Assembly (NCBI GenBank): GCA_963772005.1
Contig: CAVYVS010000021.1
Location: 52,121-116,120 of the forward strand
From: an uncultured Nitrososphaerota archaeon
Lineage (GTDB): Archaea; Thermoproteota; Nitrososphaeria; Conexivisphaerales; DTJL01
Direction of reading: 5' to 3'
Length of the DNA: 64,000 nucleotides
Below are positions 4 to 57,963 of this stretch, piece by piece. Each line of letters starts with the position of its first letter. Position 1 is the stretch's first letter. The position numbers were made by a program, and so were the translations under genes. Below the pieces are notes generated by a model. That model had not been told where the DNA came from and did not search any database. It worked only from the letters and a program-made list of their open reading frames with translations.

Positions 4-1022
4 TCACACCCAGAATCCTGAACTGAACATATCCCCCAATTCTCTCCCTTCTAATAACCTTATCAAACCTAACGCTTGTTCATACGAAAGCATCGGGCGA
101 TCGAACTCTTCGTTGTCGAGAGCCACCCTTGGACAGGCTGTTTCAACAAAGGCATCGATGCCGCGAATGGCCGCAACACGCTGGGCGTTAACCTCTCGGA
201 TATGAAAGAGGTATGTCTTCTTGCCAAGAGCAGCCAGCCTATCCCTAATCTGCTCGGCCTGCTTCCTGAATAGCTGACCTTCTTTCATGCTCACGATGAT
301 TCCAATCCTCTCCGCTTCCTTCGCTTTGAGCACCGACAATATGGCCTTCCTCTCGACGTGCTCGGCATCCTTCGCCATATCCTCGATGGCGTTGAAGAAA
401 GGGTCCAGCATATAGGTCGGTTTTCGGGTATTCAGGCGTAAGCCGATCGCATGGAATCTGCTCTGTCCTAAGAAAAAGAACGCATCGACATCCTTCACGA
501 TGTTTCGTGCGCTATAATAGTTGCAACCGAAGACTTGACCGTCGAAGAGCATCCCTTCGCTCTCCCCCTTAATAGCGGAGAGACCCCGTTCGTTCAGGTA
601 GGACAGCACTGAAATCGAGTTGAGCCTTATGATTGCTTATCGTCACAACACCCACCTTCGAGAAGGCACCCTTGAATTGGCTCAACGCCAAGTCCAGTAC
701 TGGCTTGAAGTCTACGGCATACTCCACGTCCACCAGGTAGGTGTACTTGCCAATTTTGTCGACTCCCACCGAGTGGCCGAGATTCAGAATCAGGTCCAAG
801 CCCAACCGCTTGGCATCGAGGTTCATCAAGGTCACAAGTGCCGTAGCTTGGGTCGAAAAGTATCATCGTCTCCACTCCATGCTGCTGCTCCAGCCTCTCC
901 GCAAAATCGAGGACGACGTTAAGGAGCCCGTCGGGGGCCTGGATTCCTATCTTCTTTGGTTTCTGTTCAGCTATTATCCGTGATACTTGGTCTTCACGTA
1001 TCGATATGCTCACGTCAAGCAC
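4..1022 (-). pseudogene. dph2: Diphthamide synthesis protein Dph2 (2-(3-amino-3-carboxypropyl)histidine synthase), reading frame broken twice
   Basis: ORF pieces 627..1022, 569..835 and 4..609 are collinear parts of one Dph2-like protein. They read IGIQAPDGLL...DPSYGTCDL, then DAKRLGLDLILNLGHS, then VLSYLNERGLS...ETACPRV. Frame changes lie near 820 and near 610. Length 1019 nt = 3n+2. Confidence 0.8.
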
Positions 1023-1537
1023 CAGAAACCTCGGCCGGCGATTCCACTATCTCCAGCCGGGTTTTGACAGGAAGCTTACTCGAGGCTACCTTGATGGCGT
1101 CCTTTGCCTGCTGGACGTTCTTACCCTTTATACCCAGCTCAAGAAGGACGGTACCATCCTCAACTCTGGCGGCCAACCCCACCGGTTTGCCGAAGGCCCG
1201 TCTCATTCCCTCTGACAACCTGTCTGCTCCGGCTGTTGCGACCACCTTGTTCTCTCGCAGAATCAATGGGGGAAAGCCTTGACCGAGAGGATAGTAGTTC
1301 CCCTCGCCGAGAGATGTAGCCAGCTTGTTGACGGATACCCGCGCGGCTTCGAGGGCATTGTGTCTTATCTGGGCTTTTTCGCATGATATCAATTTGAATA
1401 CATAATCGTACTTCTCGCTGGGATTGCCTATGGTGAACTTCGCTATCTTGGGTTGTGGATGCCCTTTGATATACTCGACTTCTAGTGTAGGGCTGTCCTT
1501 TCACCTCTCTATAGTTCCGTCCTTTCAACTTAATCAA
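1015..1537 (-). pseudogene. rpl10e: 50S ribosomal protein uL16 (L10e), one frame break
   Basis: The N-terminus is in the frame of ORF 1160..1537 (MIKLKGRNYREVKGQPYTRSRVY). It continues in the frame of ORF 1015..1392 (KGHPQPKIAKFTIGNPSEKYDYVFKLISCEKAQIRHNALEAARV). The join is near 1468. TTG start. Length 523 nt = 3n+1. Confidence 0.85.
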
Positions 1538-1576
1538 GCTCGTAGGTTGACGTCCGCTTTAAAAGTATATTGGTCC

Positions 1577-2275
1577 TTAGAATTTTCGTTCCAAAGCAAG
1601 GTTCAGCTTTCGAATGGCTCCAATGAGTGTCACAATCTCTTCCTGCCTGATGCCCGACCGCGCTACGGCCTGTTCGAGCGTTCTGACGGCCAACTTTCGT
1701 TTATGCACCGGATACTTCCCTAGGATCAAGGCCTTCGAAAAGTACTCCAGCAGTCTATCTGAGTAGACCCGGCCGATTTGATGAGATTCTCTAGGTTGTG
1801 CTGAAGCTAGACCGTAAAGTACGATAGCCAACGCATGGGAGATGTTCAGCGTCGGGTAGGTGGTCCCTGTGTGCAGGTGGAGGACAAGGTCACAGGCTTG
1901 CAATTCGTCGACCGTGAGCCCCGTGGTATCTCTGCCAAGGAGAATTACGGTACTCGCCGGATCTATGGCTATGGAGGTAAACTCTTCAAGCGAGACGGTC
2001 TTCCTAGCAGGGTTCCTCCCCTTTCTCCCTGCTATTGCCGTTGTTCCGACAAGAAGATCGCAGTGTCTTCTGAGTTGGTCGAAGTTCAAATAGCGGGTGC
2101 CATCAAGCACATCTGCTCCATGAGAGGCAAAGCGGAAGGCTGAGCGTGGGATGTCTTCCTTGCCAACGATGAACAACCTACTCACCCCAAAGTTCTTCAT
2201 GGTCCTTGCGACATAACCTATGTTTAGACCGAATCTTGGTTCGACCAAGGCCACGCCAAGGCGTTCTAAGCGCAT
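1577..2275 (-). CDS. SpoU/TrmH-family RNA 2'-O-methyltransferase (TrmJ-like)
   Basis: 232 aa ORF with a SPOUT-class pattern (LVEPRFGLNIGYVARTMKNFG, ILLGRDTTGL, LNISHALAIVLY). Confidence 0.7.
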   Translation of the reverse strand: MRLERLGVALVEPRFGLNIGYVARTMKNFGVSRLFIVGKEDIPRSAFRFASHGADVLDGTRYLNFDQLRRHCDLLVGTTAIAGRKGRNPARKTVSLEEFTSIAIDPASTVILLGRDTTGLTVDELQACDLVLHLHTGTTYPTLNISHALAIVLYGLASAQPRESHQIGRVYSDRLLEYFSKALILGKYPVHKRKLAVRTLEQAVARSGIRQEEIVTLIGAIRKLNLALERKF

Positions 2276-4724: not shown

Positions 4725-5287
4725 CTATTTCCTGATGAATATGCTGATCCGCGTCTGGCCCGTGAGCTCTTCGTATACCCTCTTCGCTATCTGTTTTGCG
4801 GGTTCCTTTAGACCCACTCTAGCCTGGATGTCAACGAACGATTCGAAGGGTTTCTTTTCTCTTGCATCCAGTATCTCCACGGTCAGAGTCTTGCCGATTC
4901 CCGGGATCAGTTCTAAGCATGAAGCCTCGGCGTTATGGGTTGGAGATTGTTGAAGTAGCTCACATACTTCTGTTCTCCATTCTTGACCAACGTTTCAATT
5001 ACGAGCGGAAGTTCATTCTTGGCGCCCTGAGTGAGATCTTCATAGTTGAGCTTCCCCAGGACGCTGATGACCTTGTCGCGGCGATCTTTCCCGATGTACA
5101 CCTTTTCTTCCTGAGCGAATTGGGCATTATTGAATGCTAGGAGCTCCAAGAGGGTTAGGTACTCTTCTCCCAACGCTTGGACGATGAAGCCCTCTCTGTT
5201 GTGCACTATCTTGGAACGCGCCCTTGGCATGAAATCAAGGACGTAGGAATACTCTTCATATTTCTTGATTTGAGGTTGGAAGCTCAT
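4725..5287 (-). pseudogene. DUF655-family helix-hairpin-helix protein, one frame break
   Basis: ORF 4913..5287 ends at ...ITPRLHA*. The next frame continues LELIPGIGKTLTVEILDAREKKPFESFVDIQARVGL...IFIRK*. The junction is near 4915 in a tt/aa run. Length 563 nt = 3n+2. Confidence 0.7.
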
Positions 5288-7292: not shown

Positions 7293-7332
7293 CTAGGCTA
7301 GGCCGCTCCCTTTGAGTTGCTTCATGAGCTGT

Positions 7333-8625
7333 TTATTCATTGCGCATGCTCTTCGCGTTCTTCATCAGTTTCTTTCCTTGCTCGAAGGCAGTCAGCATGT
7401 CTTTGACGTCCTTCTCGGAAACCCCCGATCCTCGAGCGATCCTCTTTGTCCTCGACGAGTTAATTAAATCGGGATCTTTGCGTTCCTTGGGGGTCATCCC
7501 TCTGATTATCGCCTTCCACTTCTTGAACTTCGTCTCCATCTCCTCTGCGGCGCCTTCTTCTAGCTTGGGGAGGCCAGGCATCATCTCCATAATCTTCTGT
7601 AGCGGGCCAAGCTTGTTCAGCTGTTCCATCTGAGCATAGAAGTCTTCAAGGGTCATCTTCCCGGAGGTAATCCGCTTGGCGGTGGCTTCGTCCACTTCTG
7701 TGCCTGCCATCTTCACCTTTTCGAGAAGCCCGTGAAGGTCTCCCATCCCCAGCATCCTCCCTGCAAATCTGCTGGGCGAGAATTCCTCCAGGTCGTCAAC
7801 GCGTTCGCCGGCTGATACAAAGACTATTTTCGCCCCAGTTGCCGCGGCTGCCGCAAGAGCCCCACCTCCTTTCGCCGTTCCGTCCAGTTTGGTGACTACA
7901 ATTCCTCCCACCTTCGTGGTCGAATTGAAGGCCGAAGCCTGAGCGTAAGCCTGCTGGCCGATGGTCCCATCGATTACCAAGAGCACAAGGTTCGGTTGCA
8001 AACGGCTCTCAATTCTCTTCATCTCCTCAAGTAGTGTCTTCTCTTCCTTGTGTCGGCCTGCGGTGTCAACTACTATGAGACGTTGCCCTTCCTCAACGAA
8101 GTGCTTCTTTCCGTCTACCGCGATGGCTTCGGGTTCTTTCTTCTCCTCCCAGAACACTTCCGTCTGGGTTCTTTCTCCTAAAGTCCTCAACTGGTCATAG
8201 GCTCCAGCTCGAAAAGTGTCAGCACATACCAGGCCGACTTTGAATCCTCTTCGGGTGAAGTACCTCGCTAGCTTCCCGGCGGCAGTAGTCTTCCCAGAAC
8301 CCTGAATCCCAACCAACAAAATTGTAAAGGGCTCGGTGGCTGGAGGGTTGAGTTTTGTCTCCGTCCCCATGATCTTCGTCAGTTCGTCATAGAGGATTGA
8401 GAGAGCCTGCTCCTTCAGGGAGACGCCAGGCTTGGCCCTTTCAGCCATCAATCGATCTTCGACTCTCTTGCTAAGCTCGAAGACCACTCTGACGTTTACA
8501 TCGGCCTGGATTAGGGCCCGCTGTATATCTTTGACGAATTCCTTGATTGCCGCTTCGTCCACGACGTCAACGTCGAACAGCCGTTTGATTGCCGATTGCA
8601 GGCTTTCTCGAATCTTCTCAAACAT
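7333..8625 (-). CDS. srp54: Signal recognition particle protein SRP54
   Basis: 430 aa with GIQGSGKTT, DTAGR, TKLDGTAKGG and a Met-rich M domain (KIMEMMPGLP). Confidence 0.95.
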   Translation of the reverse strand: MFEKIRESLQSAIKRLFDVDVVDEAAIKEFVKDIQRALIQADVNVRVVFELSKRVEDRLMAERAKPGVSLKEQALSILYDELTKIMGTETKLNPPATEPFTILLVGIQGSGKTTAAGKLARYFTRRGFKVGLVCADTFRAGAYDQLRTLGERTQTEVFWEEKKEPEAIAVDGKKHFVEEGQRLIVVDTAGRHKEEKTLLEEMKRIESRLQPNLVLLVIDGTIGQQAYAQASAFNSTTKVGGIVVTKLDGTAKGGGALAAAAATGAKIVFVSAGERVDDLEEFSPSRFAGRMLGMGDLHGLLEKVKMAGTEVDEATAKRITSGKMTLEDFYAQMEQLNKLGPLQKIMEMMPGLPKLEEGAAEEMETKFKKWKAIIRGMTPKERKDPDLINSSRTKRIARGSGVSEKDVKDMLTAFEQGKKLMKNAKSMRNE

Positions 8626-11361: not shown

Positions 11362-12361
11362 TCAGCAGACGATAGCGTTCTCTATGGTCCTGTAAGCCTC
11401 AGCCTCTGATCTAGCCTGTCTCTTGATCGCCTTAGCCACACATGCCAGCCTCGTTGAAGTGTCCTCCTGCTCGAAACATAACTGCCTGAGGGTTTGGTCT
11501 ATCACCGACCAGTCTTCGGCAATCTTCCTGAAGGATTCGGCGGCGGACATCAGTTCTTTGTTGTTTAGCACGGCCGATGTCTCCTCCAGAAAGCTCGCGA
11601 AGAGCTTTCTATACCCACCCCTTGCTTCCCCGTCACCTTCCCACGACACGTAATGATTCATCAACTGGTATCTGAAGTTCGGGTTCTTCCACCACCCGTT
11701 CACCCGTTCGGCGAACTTTTCTATACCCCTGACTCCAGAGAACGTCGAATCCCCGTGGAGCATCTGAGTTGTAGTCTTGGCGAGGGCCTTTCGCAGCGCG
11801 TTTTCGAAGCCGCGTAGAGGCCCCCATTCATAATACATGCCAAGGTTCTTCGACGCCATGAAACCCTTTGCCGATCGCGCCTGCTCGACGCTCTGAATCG
11901 CGGGCTTCCGGATTTCCTGACTTCCTACATCTACGACATAGAGGTTTGACTCATCGTATCCGCAGACGGTGAGATAGTGAGCGTTGAAATGGACCCTCCT
12001 CTCCAAATAGTTCAGATAGAAGCGGTCCAGCTTGAGCCCATACGGTTTGCCGTTGTCCAGCCTCCTGTACAGATTGGTTCTAGCCTCACTACGACTGACC
12101 GTTTCTTCTAGGATAAGCTTCAAACCTAGGACTTCGCTAAGACTCCGAGCCATTTCCCCAGGCTTGGCCGTGCAGAGCACCACGGGTTCAATGCAGTCCC
12201 GTCTTCCTATCGAATCTATCTATGTAGGTAAAACCGATGCCAGAGCCTAATCCAAAGACCATCGGCTCTGAGAGCTCAAGGCCCTCGGCAGCCAGCAAGT
12301 TCCTACCCGTAGTCGATTCGCAATGTATCCCTGTCAGAGGCCTGAACCCATCTACAATCAC
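11362..12361 (-). pseudogene. BtrH_N/DUF4872-like protein (C39-like peptidase fold), one frame break
   Basis: A short piece not listed in the ORF track starts at GTG 12361 (VIVDGFRPLTGIHCESTTGRNLLAAEGLELSEPMVFGLGSGIGFTY...). It then continues in ORF 11362..12183. The join is near 12190. Length 1000 nt = 3n+1. Confidence 0.5.
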
Positions 12362-12537
12362 GGGCCGATATCATCCAAGTACGCGCAAACAGTATTAAAC
12401 TAACTACCCCCAGGCCAAAGCCTACCTGCTACGCGGCGAGCGTACCCGTCCAGGCATCTCATGCTATTGCGAACAGCAGCGGGCCACCAAACGGGCCGCT
12501 CCTTGGGATCGTCTGGCATAAAGCGATTGTAGACTGG

Positions 12538-12612
12538 TGGTGGACTGGGGGGGACTCGAACCCCCGACCTCTCCCATGCCAAGGGAGTATTCTACCTCTG
12601 AACTACCAGCCC
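12538..12612 (-). tRNA. tRNA-Ala (anticodon GGC), CCA encoded
   Basis: Hand-folded cloverleaf: acceptor GGGCTGG/CCAGTCC with the G3:U70 Ala identity pair, D stem GTTC/GAAT, anticodon arm CTCCC-TTGGCAT-GGGAG, T arm GGGGG-TTCGAGT-CCCCC, discriminator A, then CCA. Confidence 0.85.
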
Positions 12613-15513: not shown

Positions 15514-17455
15514 TCATTTCAAATATGAGTCGAACCATCTGAGGTACAGTTGCAGCCTCTGAACTCTGTGCTTCGGTTTCCCTGCTCTTGAAAGCTCATG
15601 GTTCTCGCCAGGGAAGAGCACAAGTTCGGTCTCCTTTCCGAAGTATTTCAATGCGGTGAACATCTGCAGGGCTTCGACCATCCAACAGCGATAGTCCTCC
15701 ATCGAATGCACGAAAAGGAGAGGGGTCTTCACATTCCTTACGTAGCGTATCGGGGATTTGGCCATAGTCTCTTCTTCATGATCCCATGGGTCATTGCCCA
15801 TCTGGTCCTTTGTGAAGTAGGTCCCGATATCGCTGGTCCCCCAGAAAGTCCACCAGTTAGAGATTGATCTATCAGACACGGCTGCCTTGAACCGGTCCGT
15901 CTGCGTCACGATCCAATTGGTCATATAGCCGCCATAGGAGCCCCCGGCTACCCCGAACCTCTCGCCGTCCACGAAACCAAAGTGGGTCTTCGCATAGTCG
16001 ACAGCCTCCATTAGGTCCAAGTAATCTCTCTCGGCATAGTGCCCCCTGATGTCGGCGAACTTTTCAGAATAACCATCGCTTCCTCGCGGATTGATGAAGA
16101 GGACGGCATATCCTCTGGCAGCGAACACTTGGAACTCGTGAAGATACGCGTATCCGAAGGCCGTCTTGGGTCCTCCATGAATGTATAATATCGTCGGGAC
16201 TTTCTTTGTGGTCTTGGGCCGCACTACCCACCCATCTATGGGCTCCCCATCGCTCGCCTTGAAGTGGAAAATCGTCGGTCGAAGTATGGTGAGAGTCCGT
16301 TGCAGCCCTTCGTTAAATTCTGTTATTCGCCTTATCTTGCCGTCGTATACATAGAGCTCCGCCAGCCTGGTGGATTCCATTGAAGTAAAGTAGATCTTTC
16401 CCGCCCTTACCTCGAAGGCCTCTATGCTCCTCTCGCCTCCAACCAGAAGCCGAGGCTTTCTCACCGTGGGGTCGATGTTGTAAAGATGCACCGCGCCCGC
16501 GTCGTTCACCATGAAGAAGATGTCCTTGCCCACCCACTTGGGTTCGGAATTGAGCCCACCTTTTCTGACATCGCTGTTCAGCGAGTTGTTCTTGTTTCTG
16601 TCGATGCCATCGAGTTGTCGCGGCGCCCCTCCTGACGCTTCTACCACCCATAGGTGCTCATGTGAAACAGACCCGAGGATGCGACGATGGCCTAGGAACG
16701 CAATCTGTCTGTCGTCCGGGCTCCATGCTCAGGGACGATATCTCCATGTCGTGCTTGGTCAACGTCGTAGCCTTGCCACTCTTCAAATCCGCGACGACGA
16801 TGTCGGTGAGATATGGTCTGATATCATCCGTGGAAGCAGTGTAGGCGATTTTGTCTCCAGAATGCGAAACCATGGCTTTCTCAACGTCAAATTCCCCTTC
16901 AGTAACCTGTTTGGCCTTGAGGGTCTCTAGGTCGAGGACGAAAACGTGACGCCTGAGATTGTACACGAAGCCTTTGTCGTTGAACCAGATGTTGATTCGT
17001 TTTATTGTCTTGACGTCGTCCTGTGCCTCGCCCACTGCAGAAATGAAAAGGATCCGCCTGCCGTCGGGGAACCAGGCGGGCGCTTCAATAGCGCGCTTCC
17101 GTCTGTAGAGTAGCTTTGCCTCTCCTCCCTTTGCACCGATTACGAAGAGAGCGTTCCCCTTGGCGCCTCTCCTGAATCCTCGCTTTGAAGTGAAGAGGAT
17201 GCTCTTCCCGTCAAGGGAGAATTTCGGAGCGCCGTCCTTACCAGACGCCGTCAGCTCCTTCGGCTTGCCACCAGCGGAAGGGACGAGCCACACATTGCCT
17301 TCGTATTCATTGGTATCGAGGTTTGCTCGATAGACAGTGACGGCCACGGCGTCACCCTTTGGTGAAACCGATGGTTCAGATAATAGGGAATACTGGATGA
17401 TGTCCTGCGGCTTCACTGGCGTAGGCAACGGCTTGAGCCTATGCTGCCCCCTCAT
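15514..17455 (-). pseudogene. S9 family serine peptidase (acylaminoacyl-peptidase / prolyl oligopeptidase-like), one frame break
   Basis: The beta-propeller part is ORF 16658..17455 and the alpha/beta hydrolase part is ORF 15514..16647 (GGSYGGYM, GENHEL). A third frame bridges them (SLS | WSPDDRQIAFLGHRRILGSVSHEHLWVVEASGGAP). The break is near 16726. Length 1942 nt = 3n+1. Confidence 0.85.
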
Positions 17456-33586: not shown

Positions 33587-33669
33587 ACGCATCTTGCATT
33601 TGACTGCAGCCTCTTCCTTCCTGTTCTTCAGCTAGGTTAAAACGCCCGAGGAGAATGCGCGAATTTCGT

Positions 33670-38625: not shown

Positions 38626-38780
38626 GAGACCTCAAATGGACTCGTGGATTCGTGGGCAACTCAAAGTCGCCCAAGACTTAAATCCAATGCCTCGCAATTC
38701 AGGTCGCATGTTCACGCCCGAACATCCAGCCCCACGCAGGCTATCGCGCCCTCCTTCGAATTCGATTCTAGATTGCCGAG

Positions 38781-39902: not shown

Positions 39903-41047
39903 CTAAATCGCCACTTTTGTGGCCTGCGTTTCGTTTCTTAGCTGGGCGAGCCATTTCATAAAGGGCGTCCCGCCCGTCCCACTTTCGTCGGCGACCTTAC
40001 TCTGTATGTACGACACGGCATATTCGAGGTGGAGTTGTCGAAAGTCGCAGATTCCGTCAAGACAGAAGTTGTAAGCCTTGGCCAAAGTCTTGGATTGCCT
40101 GGCCACGATGTATTCTCTCAGGGGCTTGGTGGCCTCCTCTGCCACCACCGCTCCGATGAAGGCCCTGTGTCTACAGGCATGTAATTGCGCATGTCCCCGA
40201 CGTAATCAGTGAGGTCCGTCCTCATGTGCCAAACGCCCAGCGCTGCGTCGAGGGAGGGAATTATCGAGCTCTGAGCCCCAGTTTCTCCCCTGTAAGTCTG
40301 CGGTCCAGGCAATTCCCTTACTCCCACATACGTCACTCCGTCGAACATCTGGATGTAGGGTCTGAATGCAAATGCGTAAACATCGGGGCTGTTCCCTTCA
40401 GGCATTCTCTTAAGCGTCGAAACCATCTTGGTGAGAGATCCTCCTATGGCCTCGAGGGCTTCTTCCACTTCTTGCTCATTGTCGTCGGCCACACCTTGTT
40501 GCAAAGGCCCGATCGCTCGTACGGCCGCCGCCGCTTTCGATTCTATCTCTGTATGAACTAGGATGAACCACGGTTCGTCAGGGATCCTCACGAACTTCTG
40601 AACCGTGTCCAGGTTCCCAAGCTCAATCGGTCCATTTGGATCGATGCGACGCCAGTTGTTCAAGCAATACAAATCGTAAGAAAGTATCGGTCTGCTCCTC
40701 TCCATCATCCGAGAAAGGATGAAGAGGGGCAGGGCGACGGACCTAGGCAGTCTGGTCGCCGTCTCCTGCCCTATCTGGTGGACATACGCACTTGCAAGGA
40801 AGGCATACACTCTTGCTGCCGCAACCACTTCTTTCTCTCGAAGTCGATCGAAGGTCGTCAGGTCCGGTAAGGGGAGGGCCTCGACTACGGAGCGCACCTT
40901 CTGCGATTCCAGAAGTTCTGGTATTCTCTTTCCCGTCTCCTCCAATTCCTTCAAGAAGACATCCGGGTTGACGTCAAACCCTAGAGGCGGATCGGAGAGC
41001 GGCAAGAAGCCCCGAGAAGGATCTATGCCGAACCTGCCTAGCTCCAT
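39903..41047 (-). pseudogene. Indoleamine 2,3-dioxygenase (IDO)-family heme dioxygenase, one frame break
   Basis: ORF 40118..41149 has YAFLASAYV, LYCLNNWR, FRPYIQ, YRGETGAQSSIIPSLDAALGV and MRNYMPV. The next frame and ORF 39903..40148 continue HRAFIGAVVAEEATK...FRQLHLEYAVSYI...GTGGTPFMKWL (proximal His region). The join is near 40170. The likely start is M35 at 41047; ATG 41149 is also possible. Confidence 0.7.
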
Positions 41048-41513
41048 TGTCGCAACGAGCGCTGACACGAAACTGCCGCGTAATCCAACAAGATAAGCCT
41101 TGCATCGTTTCTGCACAAATACCGCTTCACGATGGTCCTGAATTGACACGGGCGGAGGCTCTCGAGTACAATAATTATGTTGTCAATTTTTCGTATACCA
41201 TACCCATTAAAACTCCCCATCTTAACGAACTGCAGGATGTCTGCACTAAGCTTTGACGAACTTGAGCGAATGAGATCAATGGCTCCCCAGGACGAAGAAA
41301 CGTTAGTCAGGAAGCTTAGCACGAGAGCAATCGAACCCCAACAAAAGTGACATCACGATTCTTTAACCCTGTCCGGGCCGACCATCGTCAGACAGCTTCG
41401 ACGCGGATAGTCCACATCTGCACTAATCGCCTTCCGCAATCCATCCAATGAAAAAGATGATATACCTGAGTCTCGACAAGTGAGCCGATTCTCCTGGGAA
41501 GGCGCTAGATGGA

Positions 41514-44962: not shown

Positions 44963-46257
44963 CCGAGTAGCCTCGCTGGAATCGACTGACCTGTCAGCAG
45001 ATCGCTGGCGGTTTCCCTTCGCCTTATCAAGTCCATTCGGTCACCGCTTACGAGCACTTCGGCCGCCCTGGGCCGGTTGTTATACTGGCTGGACATGGAG
45101 AATCCGTAGGCGCCCGTATTGAATATCGCAATCAAGTCCCCCTCCTTGAGCTTGGGGAAGGCCCTGTCCTTCGCCAAGATATCGGTGTTCTCGCATATCT
45201 GGCCGCAGACGTTCACCTCTTCATGATCGCGCTGGCCGATTTTGTTGGCGACCAGCATGGGATGGTAAGCCTTGTAGAGTGCCGGTCTGAGGAGCGTGTT
45301 CATTCCAGCGTCGATTCCCACGAACTTCTTCACCCCACTCTTGATGTGACAAACCTTCGCCAGTATAACCGTGGAGTCAGCGACAAGGTATCTACCTGGC
45401 TCCGCGGCTAGGTGCGGGTCTCCCATCTCGTACTCCTCGACCTTCGCCCTGAACACTTCTCCGACCGACTTGGCGACCTTACCGATGGGGAGCTCCTTTT
45501 CGTCCGGCGAGTACGGGATTCCAAAGCCTCCTCCCACGTTGACGAAATCGAATTCGACTCCTACCTTTGAAGCTATCCTCCCGGCGATGTCCATGAGCCG
45601 CTCCGTGATGGCGGGGAAGTAATTCGAATCTAGCACGTTGGATCCAGTCATCATGTGAATTCCGAACTTCTTCACCCCCAACCGCTTTGCCTCCGCGTAC
45701 CCCTTGGCGGCCACCTCTTCCGACGACCCGAACTTGGCGTCGGGCCCTGCAAACACGAGCCCTTCCTTGCCGCCCTTGCCCAAACCAGGATTTATCCTAA
45801 AGCAAAGCGTGTCTGGAAGGGCCATCGGTGAGAGTTTGCGTAGAAGGGCAGAATCGTCTAGATTGATGGGCACGCCCGAGTTGACAGCATAGTCTAGCTC
45901 CTCCTTCGTGTTGTAGTTCCCTGTGTACAACATCTGACTCGACTTGAAGCCTGCGACCGAAGCAGCATAGATCTCTGCCGGTGACGAACAATCAGCGGAG
46001 GCTCCCTCGCGCCTGAGCAACGCCAAAAGGGCCAGGTTCGTGTTAGCCTTTACCGCGTAGTAGAGCCTGAACTTTGAGAGCCCTCCGAACGCCGAACGGA
46101 ACCTGCGGAAGTTCTCTCGAATGCGCGCTTCGCTGGTCACGAAAGTGGGCGTCCCGAACCTCTGGGCGATATCTAGGGAGGACGCACCCTCCACGCACAG
46201 GACTCCGTTCCTGCTGCCGAAGCTTCCCCTAAGCCTTGTCAGTATCCAGTTGTCCAA
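44959..46257 (-). CDS. lysA: Diaminopimelate decarboxylase
   Basis: 432 aa with YAVKANTN, GGGFGIPY and EPGRYLVA. Confidence 0.9.
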   Translation of the reverse strand: MDNWILTRLRGSFGSRNGVLCVEGASSLDIAQRFGTPTFVTSEARIRENFRRFRSAFGGLSKFRLYYAVKANTNLALLALLRREGASADCSSPAEIYAASVAGFKSSQMLYTGNYNTKEELDYAVNSGVPINLDDSALLRKLSPMALPDTLCFRINPGLGKGGKEGLVFAGPDAKFGSSEEVAAKGYAEAKRLGVKKFGIHMMTGSNVLDSNYFPAITERLMDIAGRIASKVGVEFDFVNVGGGFGIPYSPDEKELPIGKVAKSVGEVFRAKVEEYEMGDPHLAAEPGRYLVADSTVILAKVCHIKSGVKKFVGIDAGMNTLLRPALYKAYHPMLVANKIGQRDHEEVNVCGQICENTDILAKDRAFPKLKEGDLIAIFNTGAYGFSMSSQYNNRPRAAEVLVSGDRMDLIRRRETASDLLTGQSIPARLLG

Positions 46258-47425
46258 CTAACAGGTTCTCCTCCAACAGACCATAAGCCTCGTCAAGGCG
46301 CTTCTCATCAACGAAGAAGGTCATGGCTCCCTTGCTTGACGTCACTTCTATTATGTTGATTCCATGCATGGAGAGTATGGTTGCCGCCGTCGCCACCACT
46401 CCTGGCTGGTCCACGAGATGGGGATGCACAACCTCTATGTAACCTATTCCGGCCCTTCCCGAGACCGCCTTGACTCCGTTGACCCCATGAACGCGCCTGC
46501 AAGCTTCCTGCCATTCATCTCCCTGCATGAAGAACGTTATCGTCGTCCTCCCCGTTCCTATCCCTTTGACCTTGGCAACCATCCGGTCCAATACCTGTCC
46601 AAGCACGGCAACTCCCAAGTCGGACACCACGGTAAGCTCACTCAAGCCCGAACCTTTCGCGAAATAGGGGTCGGTGGGAAGAATCGAGCCCGTGATTTCG
46701 GTGCCGTCATCACCCAGCGGTCGGCCAAATGGCACAACCCTCAACCTCTGATTGACGACCTTGTAGAACAGGGCCTCCGGTCGGACCACCTTGGCTCCTC
46801 CGTGGGCTAGGGCGTACATTTCATCTATGGTTATCTTGCTGACGGGCCTGGCGTCGGGCACGACGTTGGGATCTGCGCTCATTACGCCTGACGTGTCCTT
46901 CACCAGTATCACTTCGTCGGCCTCCAGGCAGTTCCCCAGCACGGTGGCCGTGATATCAGAGCCGCCGCGTCCTAGGACGGTGATCCTGGTTTCACATCGT
47001 CCGAGGAATCCCGGAACGACAGCCACCGAATCCTTCAGTATCGGCATGACCCCCGTGCGACATTTCTCCTTGGTCGCCCCCAGGTCGACTGCGGCGTTCA
47101 GGAAGTCCCCGTTGGTGACCACAGGAAAGCCATCGTCAGTCGGATCGAATTCCTTCACTTTAATCCCTCTGGCCCTCAGAGCGGAGGTCAAAACCTTCGC
47201 AGATGTCCTTTCGCCCATCGAGAGTATCTCGGCATAGGCGTTTCCTTCGATGTTATCTTCGAAGGAAGAGACCAGGTTGAGGAGTTGGTCCGTCGTCCTC
47301 CCTGGTGCCGATACAACAACGACCTTTTCTTCGTACGGAGCCTCCGCTATCATCTGAGCGGCCCGCCTCACACGCTCTCCATCGGCGAGGGTAGCCCCTC
47401 CGAACTTGATGACTGCCCTAGTCAT
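46229..47425 (-). CDS. Aspartate kinase (as sequenced, read through from dapB as one 669-aa ORF 46229..48238)
   Basis: It starts MTRAVIKFGGATL at 47425 and has GRGGSDITA and C-terminal ACT repeats. Confidence 0.9.
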   Translation of the reverse strand: MTRAVIKFGGATLADGERVRRAAQMIAEAPYEEKVVVVSAPGRTTDQLLNLVSSFEDNIEGNAYAEILSMGERTSAKVLTSALRARGIKVKEFDPTDDGFPVVTNGDFLNAAVDLGATKEKCRTGVMPILKDSVAVVPGFLGRCETRITVLGRGGSDITATVLGNCLEADEVILVKDTSGVMSADPNVVPDARPVSKITIDEMYALAHGGAKVVRPEALFYKVVNQRLRVVPFGRPLGDDGTEITGSILPTDPYFAKGSGLSELTVVSDLGVAVLGQVLDRMVAKVKGIGTGRTTITFFMQGDEWQEACRRVHGVNGVKAVSGRAGIGYIEVVHPHLVDQPGVVATAATILSMHGINIIEVTSSKGAMTFFVDEKRLDEAYGLLEENLLVGQLDTDKA

Positions 47426-48238
47426 CCTAATCCAAGCACCCGATCCATGCCCGTAGATTCCCGGACGCCGATTCAACACCCACTTGGCCGCGAGCAGCGC
47501 TCCGGTTGCGAACGCGGACCTTGAGAAGACGGTGTGCTCTAGCCTTATTGTTTCGAAGGCCCCCGCAGCCAACACGTCGTGCTGACCAGGGATTCCTCCC
47601 CCTCTGACGGAGAGGACCTCTAATTCCTCTGGTTTCCTCTGCGAAAGGCCGTCCCTGCCGTGGACGGTCTTCGTGTACCTCCTCTGGACCCTCACGATTT
47701 CGGCCAATTTGGAAGCAGTTCCGCTGGGGGCGTCGGCCTTGCGAATGTGATGGGCCTCCACGATCGAGAAGTCGTAGCTGGAGGGCAGATGACTGAGAAG
47801 TTCCGTGAGCGAGAACAGGAAGTTCGCTCCTACAGAAAAGTTGGGCGATATTACGACTGGTATGGGTTTTACAACGGTTTCAAGCAAGGCCCTCTGGTCG
47901 GATGAGAATCCAGTCGTCCCGACCACAGCGGGCTTTCGAAGGCTCGCCACGATGGGCAGGTTCGAGAGCTCCGCTTCAGCGGTCGAAAATGAAACAAAGA
48001 CATCACATCGTCCCAAGACCTCCGCCAGCTTAGAGGGAGGGCTCACCACGACGTCGCTTTCGACCACGCCTGCCCGCCCAAGGGTCATCCCGAGCATCGA
48101 GCTCTGCGTGGATTCAATCGCTCCGCCTATCACAAAGGGGGGCGAGGCCTCTCTGGCCACCGTTGAACCCATCCTTCCCAGCGCGCCAGCAATGCAGATC
48201 CGTATCGGGTCATCCGGGCCTGACTCAGTAGCTTTCAT
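47422..48238 (-). CDS. dapB: 4-hydroxy-tetrahydrodipicolinate reductase DapB; a 1-nt indel near 47449 removes its own stop and fuses it to aspartate kinase
   Basis: It has ISPNFSVGAN and EAHHIRKADAPSGTA. After PGIYG the alternative frame reads MDRVLGLG*, with TGA at 47422-47424 forming an ATGA overlap with the ask start. Length 817 nt = 3n+1. Confidence 0.85.
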
Positions 48239-49331: not shown

Positions 49332-49418
49332 TATTGTGACGAATTAATCTTCCACTAGCGATAAATGTTACGCATATCGGAGCATGATGTTCGCATGCTC
49401 ATAGTGAGTCGACGTTAT

Positions 49419-50903
49419 TCATAGGATGGATTCGACTCTGTCGTTGAGTTTCTTCTCGGCTTTTGCAAGATCCTTCCGCCGATCGGCCGTCTCTGATTTG
49501 ATTGCTTTCAGCTTATGGTGAAGGGCTCTGTAGTTTGAAAGGACTTGCGCCCTAGACGGTCCGCCTTCCGTGGTCGTCGCCTCTAGGACGGCCTCCGGCC
49601 TGAGATACCACCGCAGTTCTTTCATCTCTGCTGCCGAGAAGGCCAGTATGGGACCCGCCTTTCGGATGAGATCGGCCAGTTCGCCTTCATCGAGGTCGAC
49701 GAATCTAAGTTTTCGCCGTGCCAAGCTTCCTGACACTTTCCCGGCTATAGAATGGGCCTGGCGGAACGCCACTCCGTGCCTCTTGACGAGCCACTCCGCG
49801 AGGGGCAGTGCGAAGACGTCGCTGCCCTCCGCCTTCTTCCGCATCTCACCCACTTCAAACGTTCCCTTTTCAAAGCATTTCCTGAGCACAGAAACAGCTT
49901 CCAAAGTAGTCGGGAAGGACCCGGCAAGAACAGCCTTCACGTTCTGTAGGTCCCTGTTGTAGCCACTCGGAAGACCCTTCAGAGTTGCCATCGTCTGTAC
50001 CAGCTCTGCTATCTTAAGGGCTGCGTCAGCCCTGACCACTTCCAGCACGTCGGCGTTCTTCTTCTGAGGCATCGCGCTCGAGGGCGAGGAAAGGTCGTCG
50101 GGGAGCTCGAAGTAAGCGAATTCCGAAGTGGACCAGATTATCAGGTCCTCCGCCATCCTGCTCAGTTCAACAAGGAGGAGGGCCTGCACGAAGACTGCTT
50201 CGGCGGCATAGTCTCTGCTTTCCACGGCGTCCTCGCAGTTGATGAGCGGCGAGTGAAATCCTAGGAGCTCGCTGGTCAGCCTCCTGTTCACCTCTATCGT
50301 CGAGCCCGCCACGGCCGATGCGCCCAATGGACTTTCGTTTGTCCTTGTGTAACAGTCTGCGAGCCTACCGAGGTCCCTGACCATTGGCTCCGCATAGCTC
50401 TGCAGGTGATGGCCCAACGTCTGAAGCTGCGCCTGCCGCATGTGGGTGTAGGCCAGCACGGGTGTCGAAGAGTACCTCCGTGATAACTCCAGAAGCGCCT
50501 CCGCGAGTCCTATCGTCGCATCGGTTAGTTCCAGGAGTCGGTCCCGACATAGCATGCGCGTTATGGTGGCGACCTGGTCGTTCCTGGACCTAGCCGTATG
50601 CAGTCTTCCTCCCGTGTCCTTCGAAGTCAAAAGGGTCACCGAGGTCTCTACGAATTCATGGATGTCCTCGAACCCTGTTGTCAGGACGCCTCCCTCCGCC
50701 GTCTTCCTCAGGGCCCGGATGAGCTCTCCTGCCTGCCTTTTGTTTACCCATCTCTGTTCCTCCAGCATTACCACATGTGCGAGGGAGCATTCGATTTCGT
50801 ATGCCAGGAACTCGGCGTCGACATGCAGGGACCCTATGAAGCGCTGGGATTTGGGATCTATGTCCTTGCTCAGCCTTGACCGATAAAGCCCTCCAGTCAT
50901 CAC
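49419..50903 (-). CDS. argH: Argininosuccinate lyase
   Basis: 494 aa with TARSRNDQV and SSAMPQKKN. GTG start. Confidence 0.95.
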   Translation of the reverse strand: MMTGGLYRSRLSKDIDPKSQRFIGSLHVDAEFLAYEIECSLAHVVMLEEQRWVNKRQAGELIRALRKTAEGGVLTTGFEDIHEFVETSVTLLTSKDTGGRLHTARSRNDQVATITRMLCRDRLLELTDATIGLAEALLELSRRYSSTPVLAYTHMRQAQLQTLGHHLQSYAEPMVRDLGRLADCYTRTNESPLGASAVAGSTIEVNRRLTSELLGFHSPLINCEDAVESRDYAAEAVFVQALLLVELSRMAEDLIIWSTSEFAYFELPDDLSSPSSAMPQKKNADVLEVVRADAALKIAELVQTMATLKGLPSGYNRDLQNVKAVLAGSFPTTLEAVSVLRKCFEKGTFEVGEMRKKAEGSDVFALPLAEWLVKRHGVAFRQAHSIAGKVSGSLARRKLRFVDLDEGELADLIRKAGPILAFSAAEMKELRWYLRPEAVLEATTTEGGPSRAQVLSNYRALHHKLKAIKSETADRRKDLAKAEKKLNDRVESIL

Positions 50904-51591
50904 TGCTTGCCTCCCAATCGCCGCGCTTCGGAGACAAGGTCTGTAACAGCCGTGAATGCCTTGACGACGTCCCCCATCTTCACAACTATGATAGTGTCGG
51001 TGTAGTTGCTCACGGTGTCGACCACGTTTATACCTCCCCGTCCGACGCGGTTATAGATGGCAGCTACGCAGCCTGCAGTCTCGGCTATCTCCTCAGGGCT
51101 ATGTATGATGAGGGCAGGCTACGCTCGGTCTTCGCTTCTATCACTTCTTCGTCCTTGAACCGACCACGAAGATATCCGAACAGGCTTCTCTCAAACACCA
51201 GGGTGTATGCGCTGGGAGAGCTCGAAATCTGCAGGAAGGCGTCATAGTTCTTGAACGCGATGTCCTTTATCCTAGCTGACGCCTCCGGGTCTACCTGGAC
51301 CGAGACCAAGGCTAGGTCGGTCCTGACCTCGACGCTGCTCTTTGCCAGCACCTTAAGGTATCCCAACGCCCCTCTCCTATAGGCGCCCTTAATTCGCTTC
51401 AACGAAGTGATTATGGCCTCCTCTGAAACGCTCCGGCCCATGCTCGACACGACCGCGGGCCTCAGCAGCCTAGCCGCCGCGCTCACGTTCACGATCCCCC
51501 TCGCCAGCGCTTCCTGCAACAGAGAATCGCCGTCCACCTGCTCCCTGACCGACCTGGAGATGGAAGTCGTGACCAGTTTTGGTCTAGTCAT
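50900..51591 (-). pseudogene. Hypothetical protein with C-terminal ACT-like domain, one frame break; candidate amino-acid-sensing regulator
   Basis: ORF 51085..51591 continues in another frame as ALIIHSPEEIAETAGCVAAIYNRVGRGGINVVDTVSNYTDTIIVVKMGDVVKAF...GGKQ*. The join is near 51114. Its stop overlaps the argH start (GTGA). Length 692 nt = 3n+2. Confidence 0.45.
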
Positions 51592-51616
51592 GGCTAATTC
51601 CGACCAGCGTCGTCCG

Positions 51617-51629
51617 AAATAATTAAATG
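51617..51629. promoter_or_regulatory. Candidate shared bidirectional TATA element between the ACT-argH and argG-lysW operons
   Basis: The near-palindromic AAATAATTAAATG lies roughly 26-40 nt from both ATG 51591 (minus) and ATG 51657 (plus). Confidence 0.35.
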
Positions 51630-51656
51630 TTGCCCTCCAGCTGCCTTGCGTTATCT

Positions 51657-52868
51657 ATGGCCTCTAAAATCGTCTTGGGCTATTCGGGCGGCCTTGACAC
51701 CACGACAGCCATTCTGTGGCTGAAGGAGAAGTACGGCTACGACGTCGTGACCTTGACCATCGATGTCGGACAGGAAGAGGATTTCGCGCCTATAGCGAGG
51801 AGATCGCAGGAGCTGGGCGCGGTTCAGCATTACGAAATCGATGCCAAGGAGGAGTTCTCCAACGCCTACATAGCCAAGTCCATCAGGGCCAACGGGCTCT
51901 ACCAGGGGAAGTACCCCCTCAGCACCGCCTTGGCCCGGCCGCTCATTGCCGCCAAGCTGGTAGAAGTTGCTGAGAAGGAAGGTGCGACGGCCGTGGCCCA
52001 CGGTTGCACCGGCAAGGGTAACGATCAGGTCAGGTTCGACTTGTGCGTGAACGCCCTCAACCCCAACCTCAAGGTGGTAGCGCCAGTAAGGGAATGGAAT
52101 CTTAGTAGGACCGACGAAGTGGCCTACCTCAAATCCAAGGGCTTCGATGCGCCCACCAAACGGTCGGAGTTCAGCGTCGATCAGAACCTATGGGGGAGAT
52201 CCGTTGAAGGTGGCGCAATCGAGAATCCTGCCGATGAGCCCCCGCAGGAGGCCCTAGATTGGACCCAGCCTCCAGAGCTCTGGCCCGCCGAGCCGTCATA
52301 TGTAACGATCGGCTTCCAGGAGGGAGTTCCCACATCGTTGGACGGCCAAGAGCTGAAGCTGTCCGAGATTATAGTCAAACTCAACCGCCTGGCAGGGACG
52401 CATGGAATCGGGGTCCTCGACCACATGGAGGATAGGTCTGTTGGTATCAAGTCCCACGAGGTCTACGAATGCCCAGCCGCCACGGTCCTAATCGAAGCCC
52501 ATCGGGAGCTCGAGAAGCTCGTCCTGACGAGATCTGAGGGAGCCTTCAAGCCAATCGTCGAGCAGCAGTGGGCCTCGTTGGTCTACTCGGGCCTCTGGAT
52601 TGACCCGTTGCTCAAGGACCTTCAGAGCTTTATCGATTCAACCCAGGAGTTCGTTTCAGGGGAGACCAAAATCAAACTGTTCAAGGGAGCGAGCAGGGTA
52701 GTGGGGAGGTCATCCCCCTATGCGCTCTACCAGAAACAGTTGTCCACCTACGGGGTGGATTCGACCTTCGACCAGAGGGCAGCCGAGGGCTTCATCAAAC
52801 TCTGGGGTCTTCCGTCTGTGATGGCTGCACGACGCAGCCTACTAAAAACGAAGGAGGTGTTAGCATGA
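51657..52868 (+). CDS. argG: Argininosuccinate synthase
   Basis: MASKIVLGYSGGLDTT at the second ATG (the ORF track starts at 51627), plus HGCTGKGNDQVRF. Confidence 0.95.
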   Translation: MASKIVLGYSGGLDTTTAILWLKEKYGYDVVTLTIDVGQEEDFAPIARRSQELGAVQHYEIDAKEEFSNAYIAKSIRANGLYQGKYPLSTALARPLIAAKLVEVAEKEGATAVAHGCTGKGNDQVRFDLCVNALNPNLKVVAPVREWNLSRTDEVAYLKSKGFDAPTKRSEFSVDQNLWGRSVEGGAIENPADEPPQEALDWTQPPELWPAEPSYVTIGFQEGVPTSLDGQELKLSEIIVKLNRLAGTHGIGVLDHMEDRSVGIKSHEVYECPAATVLIEAHRELEKLVLTRSEGAFKPIVEQQWASLVYSGLWIDPLLKDLQSFIDSTQEFVSGETKIKLFKGASRVVGRSSPYALYQKQLSTYGVDSTFDQRAAEGFIKLWGLPSVMAARRSLLKTKEVLA

Positions 52869-53035: not shown

Positions 53036-53044
53036 GCCGGTCAG

Positions 53045-54939: not shown

Positions 54940-54945
54940 TCAGAA

Positions 54946-55747
54946 GTGGTAACAGTCGTAAAGATAGGCGGCCGGCTCACCGAAGGACCCTACCTAGATC
55001 AGTATAGGAGCCGATCTGGCGTCTAACAAGGAGCTTTCTCCCACCCTTATCGTCCACGGTGGAGGGGACCTGGTGACCAGGTTCGGAGAGCGGATGGGGA
55101 TAAAGCAGAAGTTCGTTATGGCTCCGTCGGGCGTCCGAAGCAGATATACCGATGGCGAGACCCTTCAGGCCTGTCTGATGGTCTTGGCAGGGCTGGTGAA
55201 CACTCGCGTCGTTCAGGCCCTGGAACGCCAGGGCGTACAAGCATTGGGGCTTACGGGTGCCGACTGCGAGTTGATCAGGGCCGAACGTCGGGAGAAGATA
55301 TTGGTGGTCGAGGGTGGAAAGAAGATGGCGATCGATGGCGGCTACTCCGGGAAACCCTTCGCCGTGAACTCGGGCTTGATCAGCCACCTCTTTGACATGA
55401 ACATAGTCCCCGTTGTCGCTCCCTTGGGGATAGACGCCAAGGGAGACCTTGTGAACATGGACGGCGATTCTGCGGCTGCCGCCATCGCGTCGGGACTGAA
55501 AGCAGATACATTGCTGTTCCTCTCGGACGTGGACGGCTTGCTGATTGACGGCAAAGTCATCCCCAGGGTCCAGGCCGGTGCCTTGGAGGGTCTAATCAAG
55601 ACCACGGGTGTGGGCATGAACCGCAAGCTTCTCTCTGCCCTCAAGGCGCTTAGAGGAGGGGTTCCCAAGGTGATAATATCCAATGGGAAGGCACAGCGTC
55701 CGCTGAGCGCGGCGCTCTTCGATAATCGGGGGACCATAATTCAATGA
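54946..55747 (+). pseudogene. lysZ: LysZ/ArgB-type amino-acid kinase, one frame break
   Basis: It starts at GTG 54946 (VVTVVKIGGRLTEGPYLDQ). The frame of ORF 55073..55747 then extends upstream (GADLASNKELSPTLIVHGGGDLV...NMDGDSAAAAIA). The break must lie between 54998 and 55023. Length 802 nt = 3n+1. Confidence 0.85.
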
Positions 55748-56916
55748 GCGACGCGCAGACGAACATCGAAGACCGTTGGCTCATCCCAACCTACGCCAAG
55801 CTTCCTGTGAAGATAGTCCGGGGCGAAGGGTCCTATGTCTGGGATGCTAGCGGGAAGCAGTTCATCGACTTTGCCACTGGATACGGCACCGCCATCCTCG
55901 GCCATTGTCCGCCTGCCGTCAAAGCCGCAGTAGTTGAACAGGTATCCAAGCTCATGGTCTGTCATGGGAGCCTCTACAACGACGCAAGGGAGAGGTTCTT
56001 TGAGGCCCTCGAGCCAGCGGCCCCAAAAGGCCTCGACAAGGCCTTTCTGGGCAATAGCGGGGCCGAAGCGGTAGAAGCAGCGATGAAGCTCGCCATCAGG
56101 AAGTCTGGAAAGAAAGGTTTCGTTGCCTTCCAGGGCGCGTATCACGGGAAGACCCTCGGCGCGCTCTCGCTGACTTGGGGGGCCAAGTATAGGGAACCAT
56201 ATCAGGAGATTCTCCTTCCCACCAAATTCGCAAGATATGGCGACTCGTCGAGCGTTCCTCAGCTAATTGACGCCGACACGGCTGCCGTGATTGTCGAGCC
56301 CGTCCAAGGAGAGGCCGGCATTAGGGTGCCGCCTCCAGGGTTCCTAAAGGAGGTCGAAGAGGCCTGTCGGCACGCCGGCGTGCTTCTGATAGTCGATGAG
56401 ATTCAGTCTGGCTTGGGCCGTACGGGGCTCATGTGGGCGCACGAACGCGAAGGCATTAGGCCCGACGTCATGTGCTTCGGGAAGGGTCTGGCCTCAGGGA
56501 TACCCATACGGAGCAATCCTGACGACTCCAGAAGTCGCCGGGGCTTGGCCAAAGGAGAACACACTACAACTTTCGGAGGGAATCCGGTTTCCTGCGCTGC
56601 TGCCGCTGCTACACTCAACCAAATTGTCTCGAGCAAGCTGTGGCTCAACGCGGCCGAAAAGGGAGCCAGGTTGGTTGACATCTACAGCCGCCTCCCGCGA
56701 ACAATCGTCAGGGAGGCCAGGGGATTGGGATTGATGCTCGCAGTGGAGACCCGGCAGCCTTGCACGCCCATCATCAAGAAGCTCCTGGCCAATGGGCTTT
56801 TGACCATCCCTACAGGCCTCAACGTCGTGCGGACTCTTCCTCCCATCAACCTTGAGGCCTCCGTACTGGATACGGCCGCTCCGATTTTAGAGTCCGCCTT
56901 CAGGGGTGACGCCTGA
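55744..56916 (+). CDS. lysJ: LysJ/ArgD-type acetylornithine-family aminotransferase (contains a compensated out-of-frame stretch 56509-56555)
   Basis: 390 aa with DEIQSGLGRTG, FGKGLASG and TFGGNP. There is an ATGA overlap with lysZ. Confidence 0.9.
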   Translation: MSDAQTNIEDRWLIPTYAKLPVKIVRGEGSYVWDASGKQFIDFATGYGTAILGHCPPAVKAAVVEQVSKLMVCHGSLYNDARERFFEALEPAAPKGLDKAFLGNSGAEAVEAAMKLAIRKSGKKGFVAFQGAYHGKTLGALSLTWGAKYREPYQEILLPTKFARYGDSSSVPQLIDADTAAVIVEPVQGEAGIRVPPPGFLKEVEEACRHAGVLLIVDEIQSGLGRTGLMWAHEREGIRPDVMCFGKGLASGIPIRSNPDDSRSRRGLAKGEHTTTFGGNPVSCAAAAATLNQIVSSKLWLNAAEKGARLVDIYSRLPRTIVREARGLGLMLAVETRQPCTPIIKKLLANGLLTIPTGLNVVRTLPPINLEASVLDTAAPILESAFRGDA

Positions 56917-56917
56917 C

Positions 56918-57963
56918 ATGCCTCAGGATTCGGAAGCCGTCTCTCTCCTAAGGAAGCTGGTCCAGCTATACTCTCCAAGTGGCAGAGAGAAAAGGGTCGC
57001 CTCCGTCGTCCATCGCTGGCTTGCCGCCCAATCTTCTTTTGATGAAGTCGTGATAGATTCGGCTGGCAACGTCGTGGCTACAAGGGGCTCCGGACCATAT
57101 CTCCTGCTATGTGGACACATGGACACAGTGCCTGGCAGGCTACCCGTCACCTTCAAGAATGGAATGATAAGAGGGAGGGGTGCGGTTGGACGCCAAGGCG
57201 TCGCTCGCAGCCATGTGTATGGGTTCCTCATTGGCCGCAAGCCAAGGTGCGAAGGGCTTTATGTTCGCCGCAGTCGTGGGGGAGGAGACCAGCGGGAAGG
57301 GCATGAAGGCCCCTTCTCTCCAAGGGATGTCAGTTCGCGGGAGGGATCTTCGGCGAGCCCTCCGGTGGCGGAATCGTCATAGGCTACCGAGGGAGGCTGG
57401 GCTTGGAGCTCGAGGTCCAGGGCAAGGCGGCTCATGCCTCAAGCTCGGCTCTGGGCGTCAACGCGGTTGAGATTGGGATGGAAGCGGCGCTTGGGCTGAA
57501 GAAGGAACTCACCTCTTTAGGGTGCGCAGCCTCCATAACCATTGTCAGGGGAGGAAAGGCGGAGAACATGATACCTGCCAGCTGCAAGGTGGCCATGGAC
57601 ATTCGGATTCCCACTACGGTGGAGATGGCCCAAGTGCGTAGAGTCGTCGAGGAAGGCGATAGACCGGGGACGAAGTCAAAGGTCTCTGACTTCACTCCTC
57701 CCATCAACGTAGGAAGGGCGAACCGCGTATTCGGCTCTATGGCGGCGGTCATGACTGAAAGGGGAGTCCAGCCGAGGGCCCTGGTCAAGGTAGGCACCAG
57801 CGACATGAATTCGTTCTTCCTTACTACGAGGGCACCATGCATCGCATACGGGCCCGGCGACGCCGCCCTCTCCCATACGGACAACGAGGCCGTAGGCGAG
57901 GCGGATTATCTGGCCGCCATTCAAGTCTATGCCTCGACCATCAGAAGATTCTTGCGAGCGTGA
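56918..57963 (+). pseudogene. lysK: LysK/ArgE-type M20 deacylase (carrier-protein hydrolase), two frame breaks
   Basis: There are three collinear pieces. The first is ...CGHMDTVPG...IRGRGAV. The second is DAKASLAAMCMGSSLAAS...AAVVGEETSGKGMKA. The third is LLSKGCQFAGGIFGEPSGGGIVIGYRGRLGLELEVQGKAAHASS... The breaks are near 57188 and in the CCCC run at 57310-57313. Length 1046 nt = 3n+2. Confidence 0.8.

Follow-up and report, generated by a model that had tools for sequence, protein, structure and literature searches.

Small frame-breaking indels in a contig from an uncultured Nitrososphaeria archaeon: very probable consensus errors, partly associated with CATG

Frameshifted pseudogenes are found in decaying genomes, e.g., those of Mycobacterium leprae or recent endosymbionts, and programmed frameshifting or slippage is exemplified by prfB, dnaX, insertion sequence (IS) elements, and the poly-A slippage of endosymbionts. 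Small indels may also arise in the sequencing of a genome; the modification-related errors of Oxford Nanopore Technologies (ONT) data are typically substitutions inside the modified motif. Errors in ONT consensus sequences are most concentrated at methylation motifs, with homopolymers next (Wick et al. 2019, Genome Biol 20:129, PMC6591954). The signal is disturbed by modifications that are specific to a species, and the resulting systematic errors can be recognized from coding-region frameshifts (Homopolish, PMC8011154). Here we describe small insertions and deletions (indels) in conserved genes of a 64,000-nucleotide stretch (the window), part of a 126,468-bp metagenome-assembled contig from an uncultured Nitrososphaeria archaeon close to Conexivisphaerales. 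The window contains at least 22 indels in 16 genes (15 of +1, two of +2, and five of −1), besides at least two suspicious substitutions. Very probably, these breaks are consensus or assembly errors of an error-prone read technology, most probably Oxford Nanopore, and not mutations of the organism.

As in the described ONT cases (PMC6591954, PMC8011154), errors in the window are concentrated at one short palindromic motif and at some short homopolymers, assemblies of the same reads disagree at the motif, conserved genes are frameshifted, and the short-read assemblies of relatives are clean. Unlike those cases, the motif is CATG(C) rather than the Dcm (CCWGG) or Dam (GATC) site, most of the errors are indels 1–4 nt beside it, insertions dominate, and we infer both platform and modification. 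The window also resembles decaying genomes, with genes interrupted by small indels and ORF callers returning split genes; in contrast to such genomes, essential genes are struck, secondary decay is not seen, one lesion is not reproduced, and the breaks track a motif and the sequencing technology. The downstream frames encode conserved continuations of each protein, reminiscent of programmed frameshifting, whereas a common slippery sequence is lacking, signs and sizes are mixed, compensating pairs occur, and the breaks are absent in orthologues.

Frame breaks, intact orthologues, and independent assemblies

A preliminary description of the window had listed 16 frame breaks. All were found in the sequence, at most about 12 nt from the positions given there, by a Pfam run on stop-to-stop fragments and by a frameshift-aware dynamic program in which intact orthologous proteins of related contigs were aligned to the window DNA; the broken genes are thus confirmed as real features of the deposited sequence. 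At least six further indels were detected, located in SRP54, in L10e (a pair), at 51646 in an ACT-like gene, and probably in a rhomboid protease gene (a pair). Pfam profiles are split into consecutive parts across frames for dph2, BtrH_N, IDO, the S9 peptidase, and LysK, and matches are truncated for DUF655 and LysZ. Syntenic DNA was available from contigs L001 (window 43887–62957, 77% nucleotide identity), L008 (3–20157, 73% identity), and L009 (about 28230–46684). L001 and L009, together with L010, are MEGAHIT-named contigs of short-read style, while L008 (ena:ERZ25039512:contig_45184) is Flye-style, i.e., of long-read style. Nucleotide alignment by blastn to these 73–77% identical relatives produced many spurious compensating gap pairs and was set aside in favor of the protein-level, frameshift-aware alignment.

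Edits of one base were sufficient to restore ORFs as long as their orthologues (DUF655, 187 aa; SRP54, 443 aa; DapB, 271 aa; LysJ, 390 aa). Upstream of the first break, the proteins are 81.6% identical to their orthologues, as compared to 82.2% downstream of it, and no stops were found in 2,681 codons downstream of the breaks. The broken genes have intact orthologues in L001, L009, L010, or L008, and a reverse search of window ORFs against L001 and L009 found no frame breaks in those contigs, the sole multi-frame match being the window's own fusion of DapB and aspartate kinase. L008 has five or six breaks of its own in other genes, namely Pus10 (twice), Dph6, a homologue of window 10292–10825, the C terminus of DnaJ, and a KsgA–methyltransferase fusion. 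The L008 loci lie at ∼2561–2574, 8092–8105, 9472–9491, 11554–11567, 11825, and 13909–15210, and the corresponding genes are intact in the window. Essential genes are among those struck in the window: uL16/L10e carries three indels, SRP54 has lost its C terminus, and dph2 is in three pieces.

Five Logan contigs (L004, L005, L006, L007, and L011), assembled from run ERR11594402, together span 14.4 kb of the window with 99.95–100% identity. The S9 peptidase gene of the window is interrupted by an extra C at 16730; L004 does not have this base, and its S9 gene is continuous there. L004 has, however, a substitution and a deletion at window 15781–15783 that break the gene at a point where it is intact in the window. 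In L005, an extra C at 35700 turns the conserved C terminus of an aldo-keto reductase into nonsense, the window again being intact. The converse, a deletion in the window at 35700, was considered and rejected, as translation gives a proper aldo-keto reductase C terminus in the window and a broken one in Logan. Two assemblies of one population therefore each bear frame-breaking indels, at different places. L011 departs from the window only at the C of one CATG (6528), and L007 by a single substitution outside CATG (43998). Over an in-frame TAG and a −1 in a hotdog thioesterase gene and a +1 in a DUF72 gene, L006 matches the window with 100% identity. The break sites covered by Logan contigs are those of S9, hotdog, and DUF72, and only the S9 indel is not reproduced by the independent assembly.

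The origin of the window was examined by exact look-up of 10 long ORFs; nine were on record, all on one NCBI/ENA contig, and three also in Logan assemblies. The orthologue of LysY in a metagenome-assembled genome (MAG) labeled "Nitrososphaerales archaeon", on contig L001, which bears the MEGAHIT-style name k141_..., is 90% identical, and SRP54 has 90–93% identical proteins in relatives, one of them named Conexivisphaerales. Taken with the ORF look-ups, these relatives therefore identify the window as a piece of an uncultured Nitrososphaeria MAG. Close relatives at 91–93% identity are present in public data, and the G+C content of the window is 52–59%. Exact look-up returned no record for a 936-aa ORF, for LysY with an M start, or for nine of 10 frame-corrected proteins, negatives which are uninformative because the look-up needs an error-free, complete gene with an identical start.

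Association of breaks with CATG

Six of the 22 break sites in the window lie within 4 nt of a CATG, as compared to 1.03 expected (P = 4e-4), and the association persists when S9 is left out (5/21; P = 0.002). An unbiased scan of 680 3–5-mers ranked CATGC/GCATG first (6 versus 0.72 expected; P = 5.9e-5). A common geometry is observed at S9, DapB, SRP54, DUF655, and IDO, in which CATGC is followed by zero to two bases and then the indel. Disagreements between Logan contigs and the window show the same tendency, four of five (including 16730 and the L011 difference) being within 4 nt of CATG (three of four in the set tested first; P = 4e-4), and of the eight Logan contig ends tested, which belong to four of the five contigs, three directly abut CATG (P = 7e-4). 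The scan of 3–5-mers revealed no convincing second motif among the 16 non-CATG sites. The preliminary description had instead pointed to short homopolymers. Sites in hotdog and DUF72 do lie at GGGG or CCCC runs, as may one in lysK, yet the enrichment is weak, with 3/22 break sites in runs of at least 4 nt, which make up 4.1% of the window, and homopolymers were rejected as the main driver. CATG is the stronger of the two signals, and its pattern would fit base-calling disturbed by DNA modification at CATG.

A gene for an N6_N4 DNA methyltransferase (30868..31710, plus strand) is conserved in L009 and is a candidate for the enzyme of the suspected CATG modification. A 5′ break previously thought probable near 30822 is absent: at 280 aa, the window ORF is as long as its L009 orthologue, and the two align in a single frame with no events.

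The interrupted genes

Four of the genes concerned are those for dph2, uL16/L10e, DUF655, and SRP54. The diphthamide synthase gene dph2 (4..1022, minus strand) is broken by +1 indels at 830 and 613, where breaks had been suspected near 820 and 610. Positions 2–45, 40–106, and 108–287 of PF01866 are spread over three frames, and frameshift-aware alignment to the L008 orthologue yields 289/338 identities. The gene for ribosomal protein uL16/L10e (1015..1537, minus) has a +1 at 1480, accounting for a break proposed near 1468, and a compensating pair (+1 at 1290, −1 at 1265) absent from the preliminary list. These three indels fall inside 215 nt and, once allowed, give 158/170 identities to the L008 orthologue. 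The DUF655 gene (4725..5287, minus) has a −1 at 4917/4918, adjoining the CATG at 4918–4921; the earlier estimate was ∼4915. The corrected 187-aa protein is an exact match in the independent MEGAHIT contig L010. Between L010 and the window there are 123 substitutions and only one gap, the latter being the DUF655 deletion of the window, and all DNA differences inside DUF655 are synonymous. In SRP54 (7293..8625, minus), an additional find, a +1 at 7341/7342 lies 3–4 nt from the CATG at 7345–7348. The window encodes 430 aa as compared to 443 aa in all close relatives, the last 13 residues being lost, and alignment across the +1 at 7341 restores "MNKQLMKQLK...".

Further breaks occur among amino acid biosynthesis genes. 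Within 42738–57963, genes of the diaminopimelate (DAP) pathway type (asd, an aminotransferase, lysA, aspartate kinase, dapB, and dapA) adjoin argH, an ACT-like gene, argG, and a LysW-type cluster (lysW/X/Y/Z/J/K), and the block is colinear with L001 throughout. The break anticipated near 47449 in dapB (47422–48238, minus) is an extra C in CATGCC[C] at 47450–47452, which fuses dapB in frame to the aspartate kinase gene (46229–∼47450), giving a joint feature of 46229..48238. The resulting 685-aa stop-to-stop ORF holds the Pfam domains DapB_N, DapB_C, AA_kinase, and ACT, while L001 has DapB and aspartate kinase as separate genes of 271 and 417 aa. A 669-aa DapB–aspartate kinase "fusion" is already recorded in a public protein collection (P0011; NCBI, ENA). 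The ACT-like or DUF7523-like gene (50900..51657, minus) has a +2 at 51117, corresponding to a break suspected near 51114, and a +1 at 51646 that had not been listed; 220/251 residues are identical to the L001 orthologue. Its start is ATA (51655–51657, minus) where the orthologue has ATG (CCATAG versus CCATGG in L001), and this may be a substitution error inside CATG.

Three consecutive genes of the LysW-type cluster, all on the plus strand, are also affected. In lysZ, an argB-type kinase gene (54946..55747), an extra T at 55003 falls in the interval 54998–55023 to which the break had been assigned. The aminotransferase gene lysJ (55744..56916) has a +1 at 56509 and a −1 at 56549, in agreement with compensating breaks reported at 56509 and ∼56553, and its ORF stays open. 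As a consequence, 14 residues after the pyridoxal phosphate (PLP)–lysine motif are garbled: the window reads RSNPDDSRSRRGLA and the orthologue GAVLTTPEIAAAWT, while translation of the window in the +1 frame gives GAILTTPEVAGAW. In lysK (M20 peptidase; 56906..57963), for which ∼57188 and ∼57311 had been given, one +1 lies at 57188 and a second at 57308–57313, either after CATGAAG or inside a CCCC run (alignment: 57312).

The remaining broken genes lie elsewhere in the window. The gene for a BtrH_N/DUF4872 protein (11362..12370, minus) carries a +1 within 12187–12211, as judged from frame arithmetic and translations, consistent with the proposed ∼12190; BtrH_N profile positions 1–37 are in one frame and 44–133 in another. 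The S9 prolyl-oligopeptidase-family peptidase gene (15514..17455, minus) is broken by an additional C at 16730 (CATGCT[C]AGG; +1 at 16729/16730, first placed near 16726), which leaves the propeller and catalytic fragments in different frames by Pfam. The hotdog (4HBT_2) thioesterase gene (32276..32691, plus) contains both lesions ascribed to it, an in-frame TAG at 32330–32332 (CAG→TAG) and a −1 beside the GGGG at 32420–32423 (originally ∼32421), where the junction requires one more base. It is a true member of the 4HBT_2 family; at the position of the TAG, its homologues encode Q or K, and the relative L009 has no copy of the gene. The DUF72 gene (33655..34498, plus) has a +1 in the CCCC run at 33752–33755 (alignment: 33754), close to the ∼33757 given before. 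In the rhomboid protease gene (37966..38709, minus), a probable +2 at 38646 and +1 at 38572 were additionally found. Confidence in this pair is lower, as the N-terminal region is poorly conserved; "PEFFSTTK" matches the orthologue's "PEVFSTAK" in a third frame only.

In the IDO-like haem dioxygenase gene (39903..41149, minus), the break expected near 40170 is a −1 at 40171–40177, 1–9 nt 3′ of CATG on the coding strand. The Pfam profile is matched at positions 2–302 and 303–358 in two frames, and homologues all cease to match at residue ∼337. Frameshift-aware alignment to the proteins P0278 and P0282 reaches the natural C terminus with no stops. IDO-like homologues are 373–400 aa with up to 64% identity, and none is found in the syntenic L009. 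This Nitrososphaeria MAG carries both an IDO-like haem dioxygenase and a BtrH_N/DUF4872 protein.

Other features of the window include a tRNA-Ala(GGC) at 12538–12612 (minus), its sole tRNA, and three ORFs with no Pfam match (632 aa, 23020–24918, plus; 116 aa, 24946–25296, plus; 936 aa, 25306–28116, minus). Relative to L001, a 24-nt CT-rich insertion at 59949–59972 is in frame inside a small minus-strand ORF (59906–60214).

Origin of the breaks and consequences for annotation

The preliminary description had read the breaks as base-calling or assembly errors, and this reading is supported by the intact orthologues, the differing breaks of L008, the Logan disagreement at S9, the association with CATG, and repair by one-base edits. 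In the proposed sequence of events, error-prone reads and the consensus step would have left about 22 residual indels of one or two bases. About a quarter of these, 1–4 nt from CATG and mostly at CATGC, would reflect a modification that disturbs base-calling, and the remainder would be ordinary low-coverage or short-run errors. Gene callers would then yield split genes, a truncated SRP54, garbled LysJ and L10e, and a false DapB–aspartate kinase fusion. Several observations weigh against this account. L006, from a second assembly of the same reads, reproduces both hotdog lesions (TAG and −1) as well as the DUF72 +1, and these three lesions are therefore either systematic errors (two being in 4-base homopolymers) or real. 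No CATG is nearby at 16/22 sites, which have no other motif in common. Events are clustered (five in 613–1480, five or six in 55003–57312, and none in 17–32 kb), contrary to plain random error, which predicts no clustering. Insertions outnumber deletions, and this excess is atypical, since the usual nanopore bias is homopolymer deletion. Neither clustering nor insertion bias has an explanation beyond low local coverage or quality. The link to CATG, which we ascribe provisionally to methylation, could have another technical cause, e.g., a library cut with a CATG enzyme. A literature search for ERR11594402 found nothing, and the platform of both the run and the contig is deduced. A review (PMC7985215) likewise contained nothing usable about frameshifts in nanopore MAGs.

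A different origin, in which the indels are genuine mutations that have reached fixation in the population and gene decay is under way, draws on the hotdog gene above all, with two independent lesions (CAG→TAG and −1) present in both assemblies; since the gene is absent from L009, it may be an accessory gene that is really dying. DUF72 is likewise identical in both assemblies, although the Logan contigs come from one run and systematic errors would be shared, and the consecutive genes lysZ, lysJ, and lysK, with five lesions in total, have the appearance of a dead operon. This explanation is nevertheless very unlikely for the window as a whole: essential single-copy-type genes are struck (uL16/L10e three times, SRP54, and dph2), the constancy of identity across breaks and the lack of stops give no sign of relaxed constraint after the lesions, the S9 insertion is missing in the independent assembly, and neutral decay does not predict that breaks track CATG and assembly style. 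The earlier reservation that genuine decay might be involved still holds for hotdog and formally for DUF72, on which both assemblies agree, while error is favored elsewhere. Among the genes struck, only the hotdog thioesterase gene has two lesions of different kinds, and it is the only one that may be a real pseudogene. A mixture of related strains collapsed into one consensus, with haplotype flips carrying real small indels or misaligned reads, would still be an artefact, and would accommodate the clustering at 613–1480 and 55003–57312, the few differences between Logan contigs and the window (including the non-CATG substitution at 43998), and the coexistence of the 91–93% identical relatives in public data. 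We regard it as highly improbable. Mixing of intact haplotypes should create no frameshifts, because real strains would not bear frame-breaking indels in essential genes; the near identity of the Logan contigs to the window gives little sign of a second haplotype, and the CATG link is left unexplained.

Recoding, i.e., real breaks bypassed by programmed ribosomal frameshifting or transcriptional slippage, would require downstream frames to be preserved, and they are perfectly so. As a general explanation it has next to no credibility, as no slippery or stimulatory motif is common to the 22 sites (CATG at six aside), both signs and +2 occur, the compensating pairs of LysJ and L10e would need two events 25–40 nt apart, one indel is missing in the independent assembly, and orthologues in relatives are single-frame and need no recoding. 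There is a very slight chance that some of the breaks (those of DUF72 and hotdog, or the clustered ones of lysZ/J/K) are real and are tolerated or bypassed by frameshifting or slippage, in which case this archaeon would be an example of widespread recoding.

With consensus error as the preferred explanation, the finding bears on data and annotation quality rather than on biology. The earlier warning that ORF-based annotation of the window misleads is borne out, as the products of ORF calling on the window contig and on L008 include proteins that are split, truncated, garbled, or falsely fused. In pathway reconstructions for the lineage, dph2, lysZ, lysK, IDO, S9, and further genes would erroneously be counted as absent or as pseudogenes, and completeness and pseudogene statistics would be biased. 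As a by-product, this uncultured Conexivisphaerales-like lineage may have a CATG(C)-specific DNA modification not described before, a possibility to which we assign slightly less than an even chance. The CATG-linked error pattern provides a cheap diagnostic, and an indirect hint at a CATG-type DNA modification in the archaeon.

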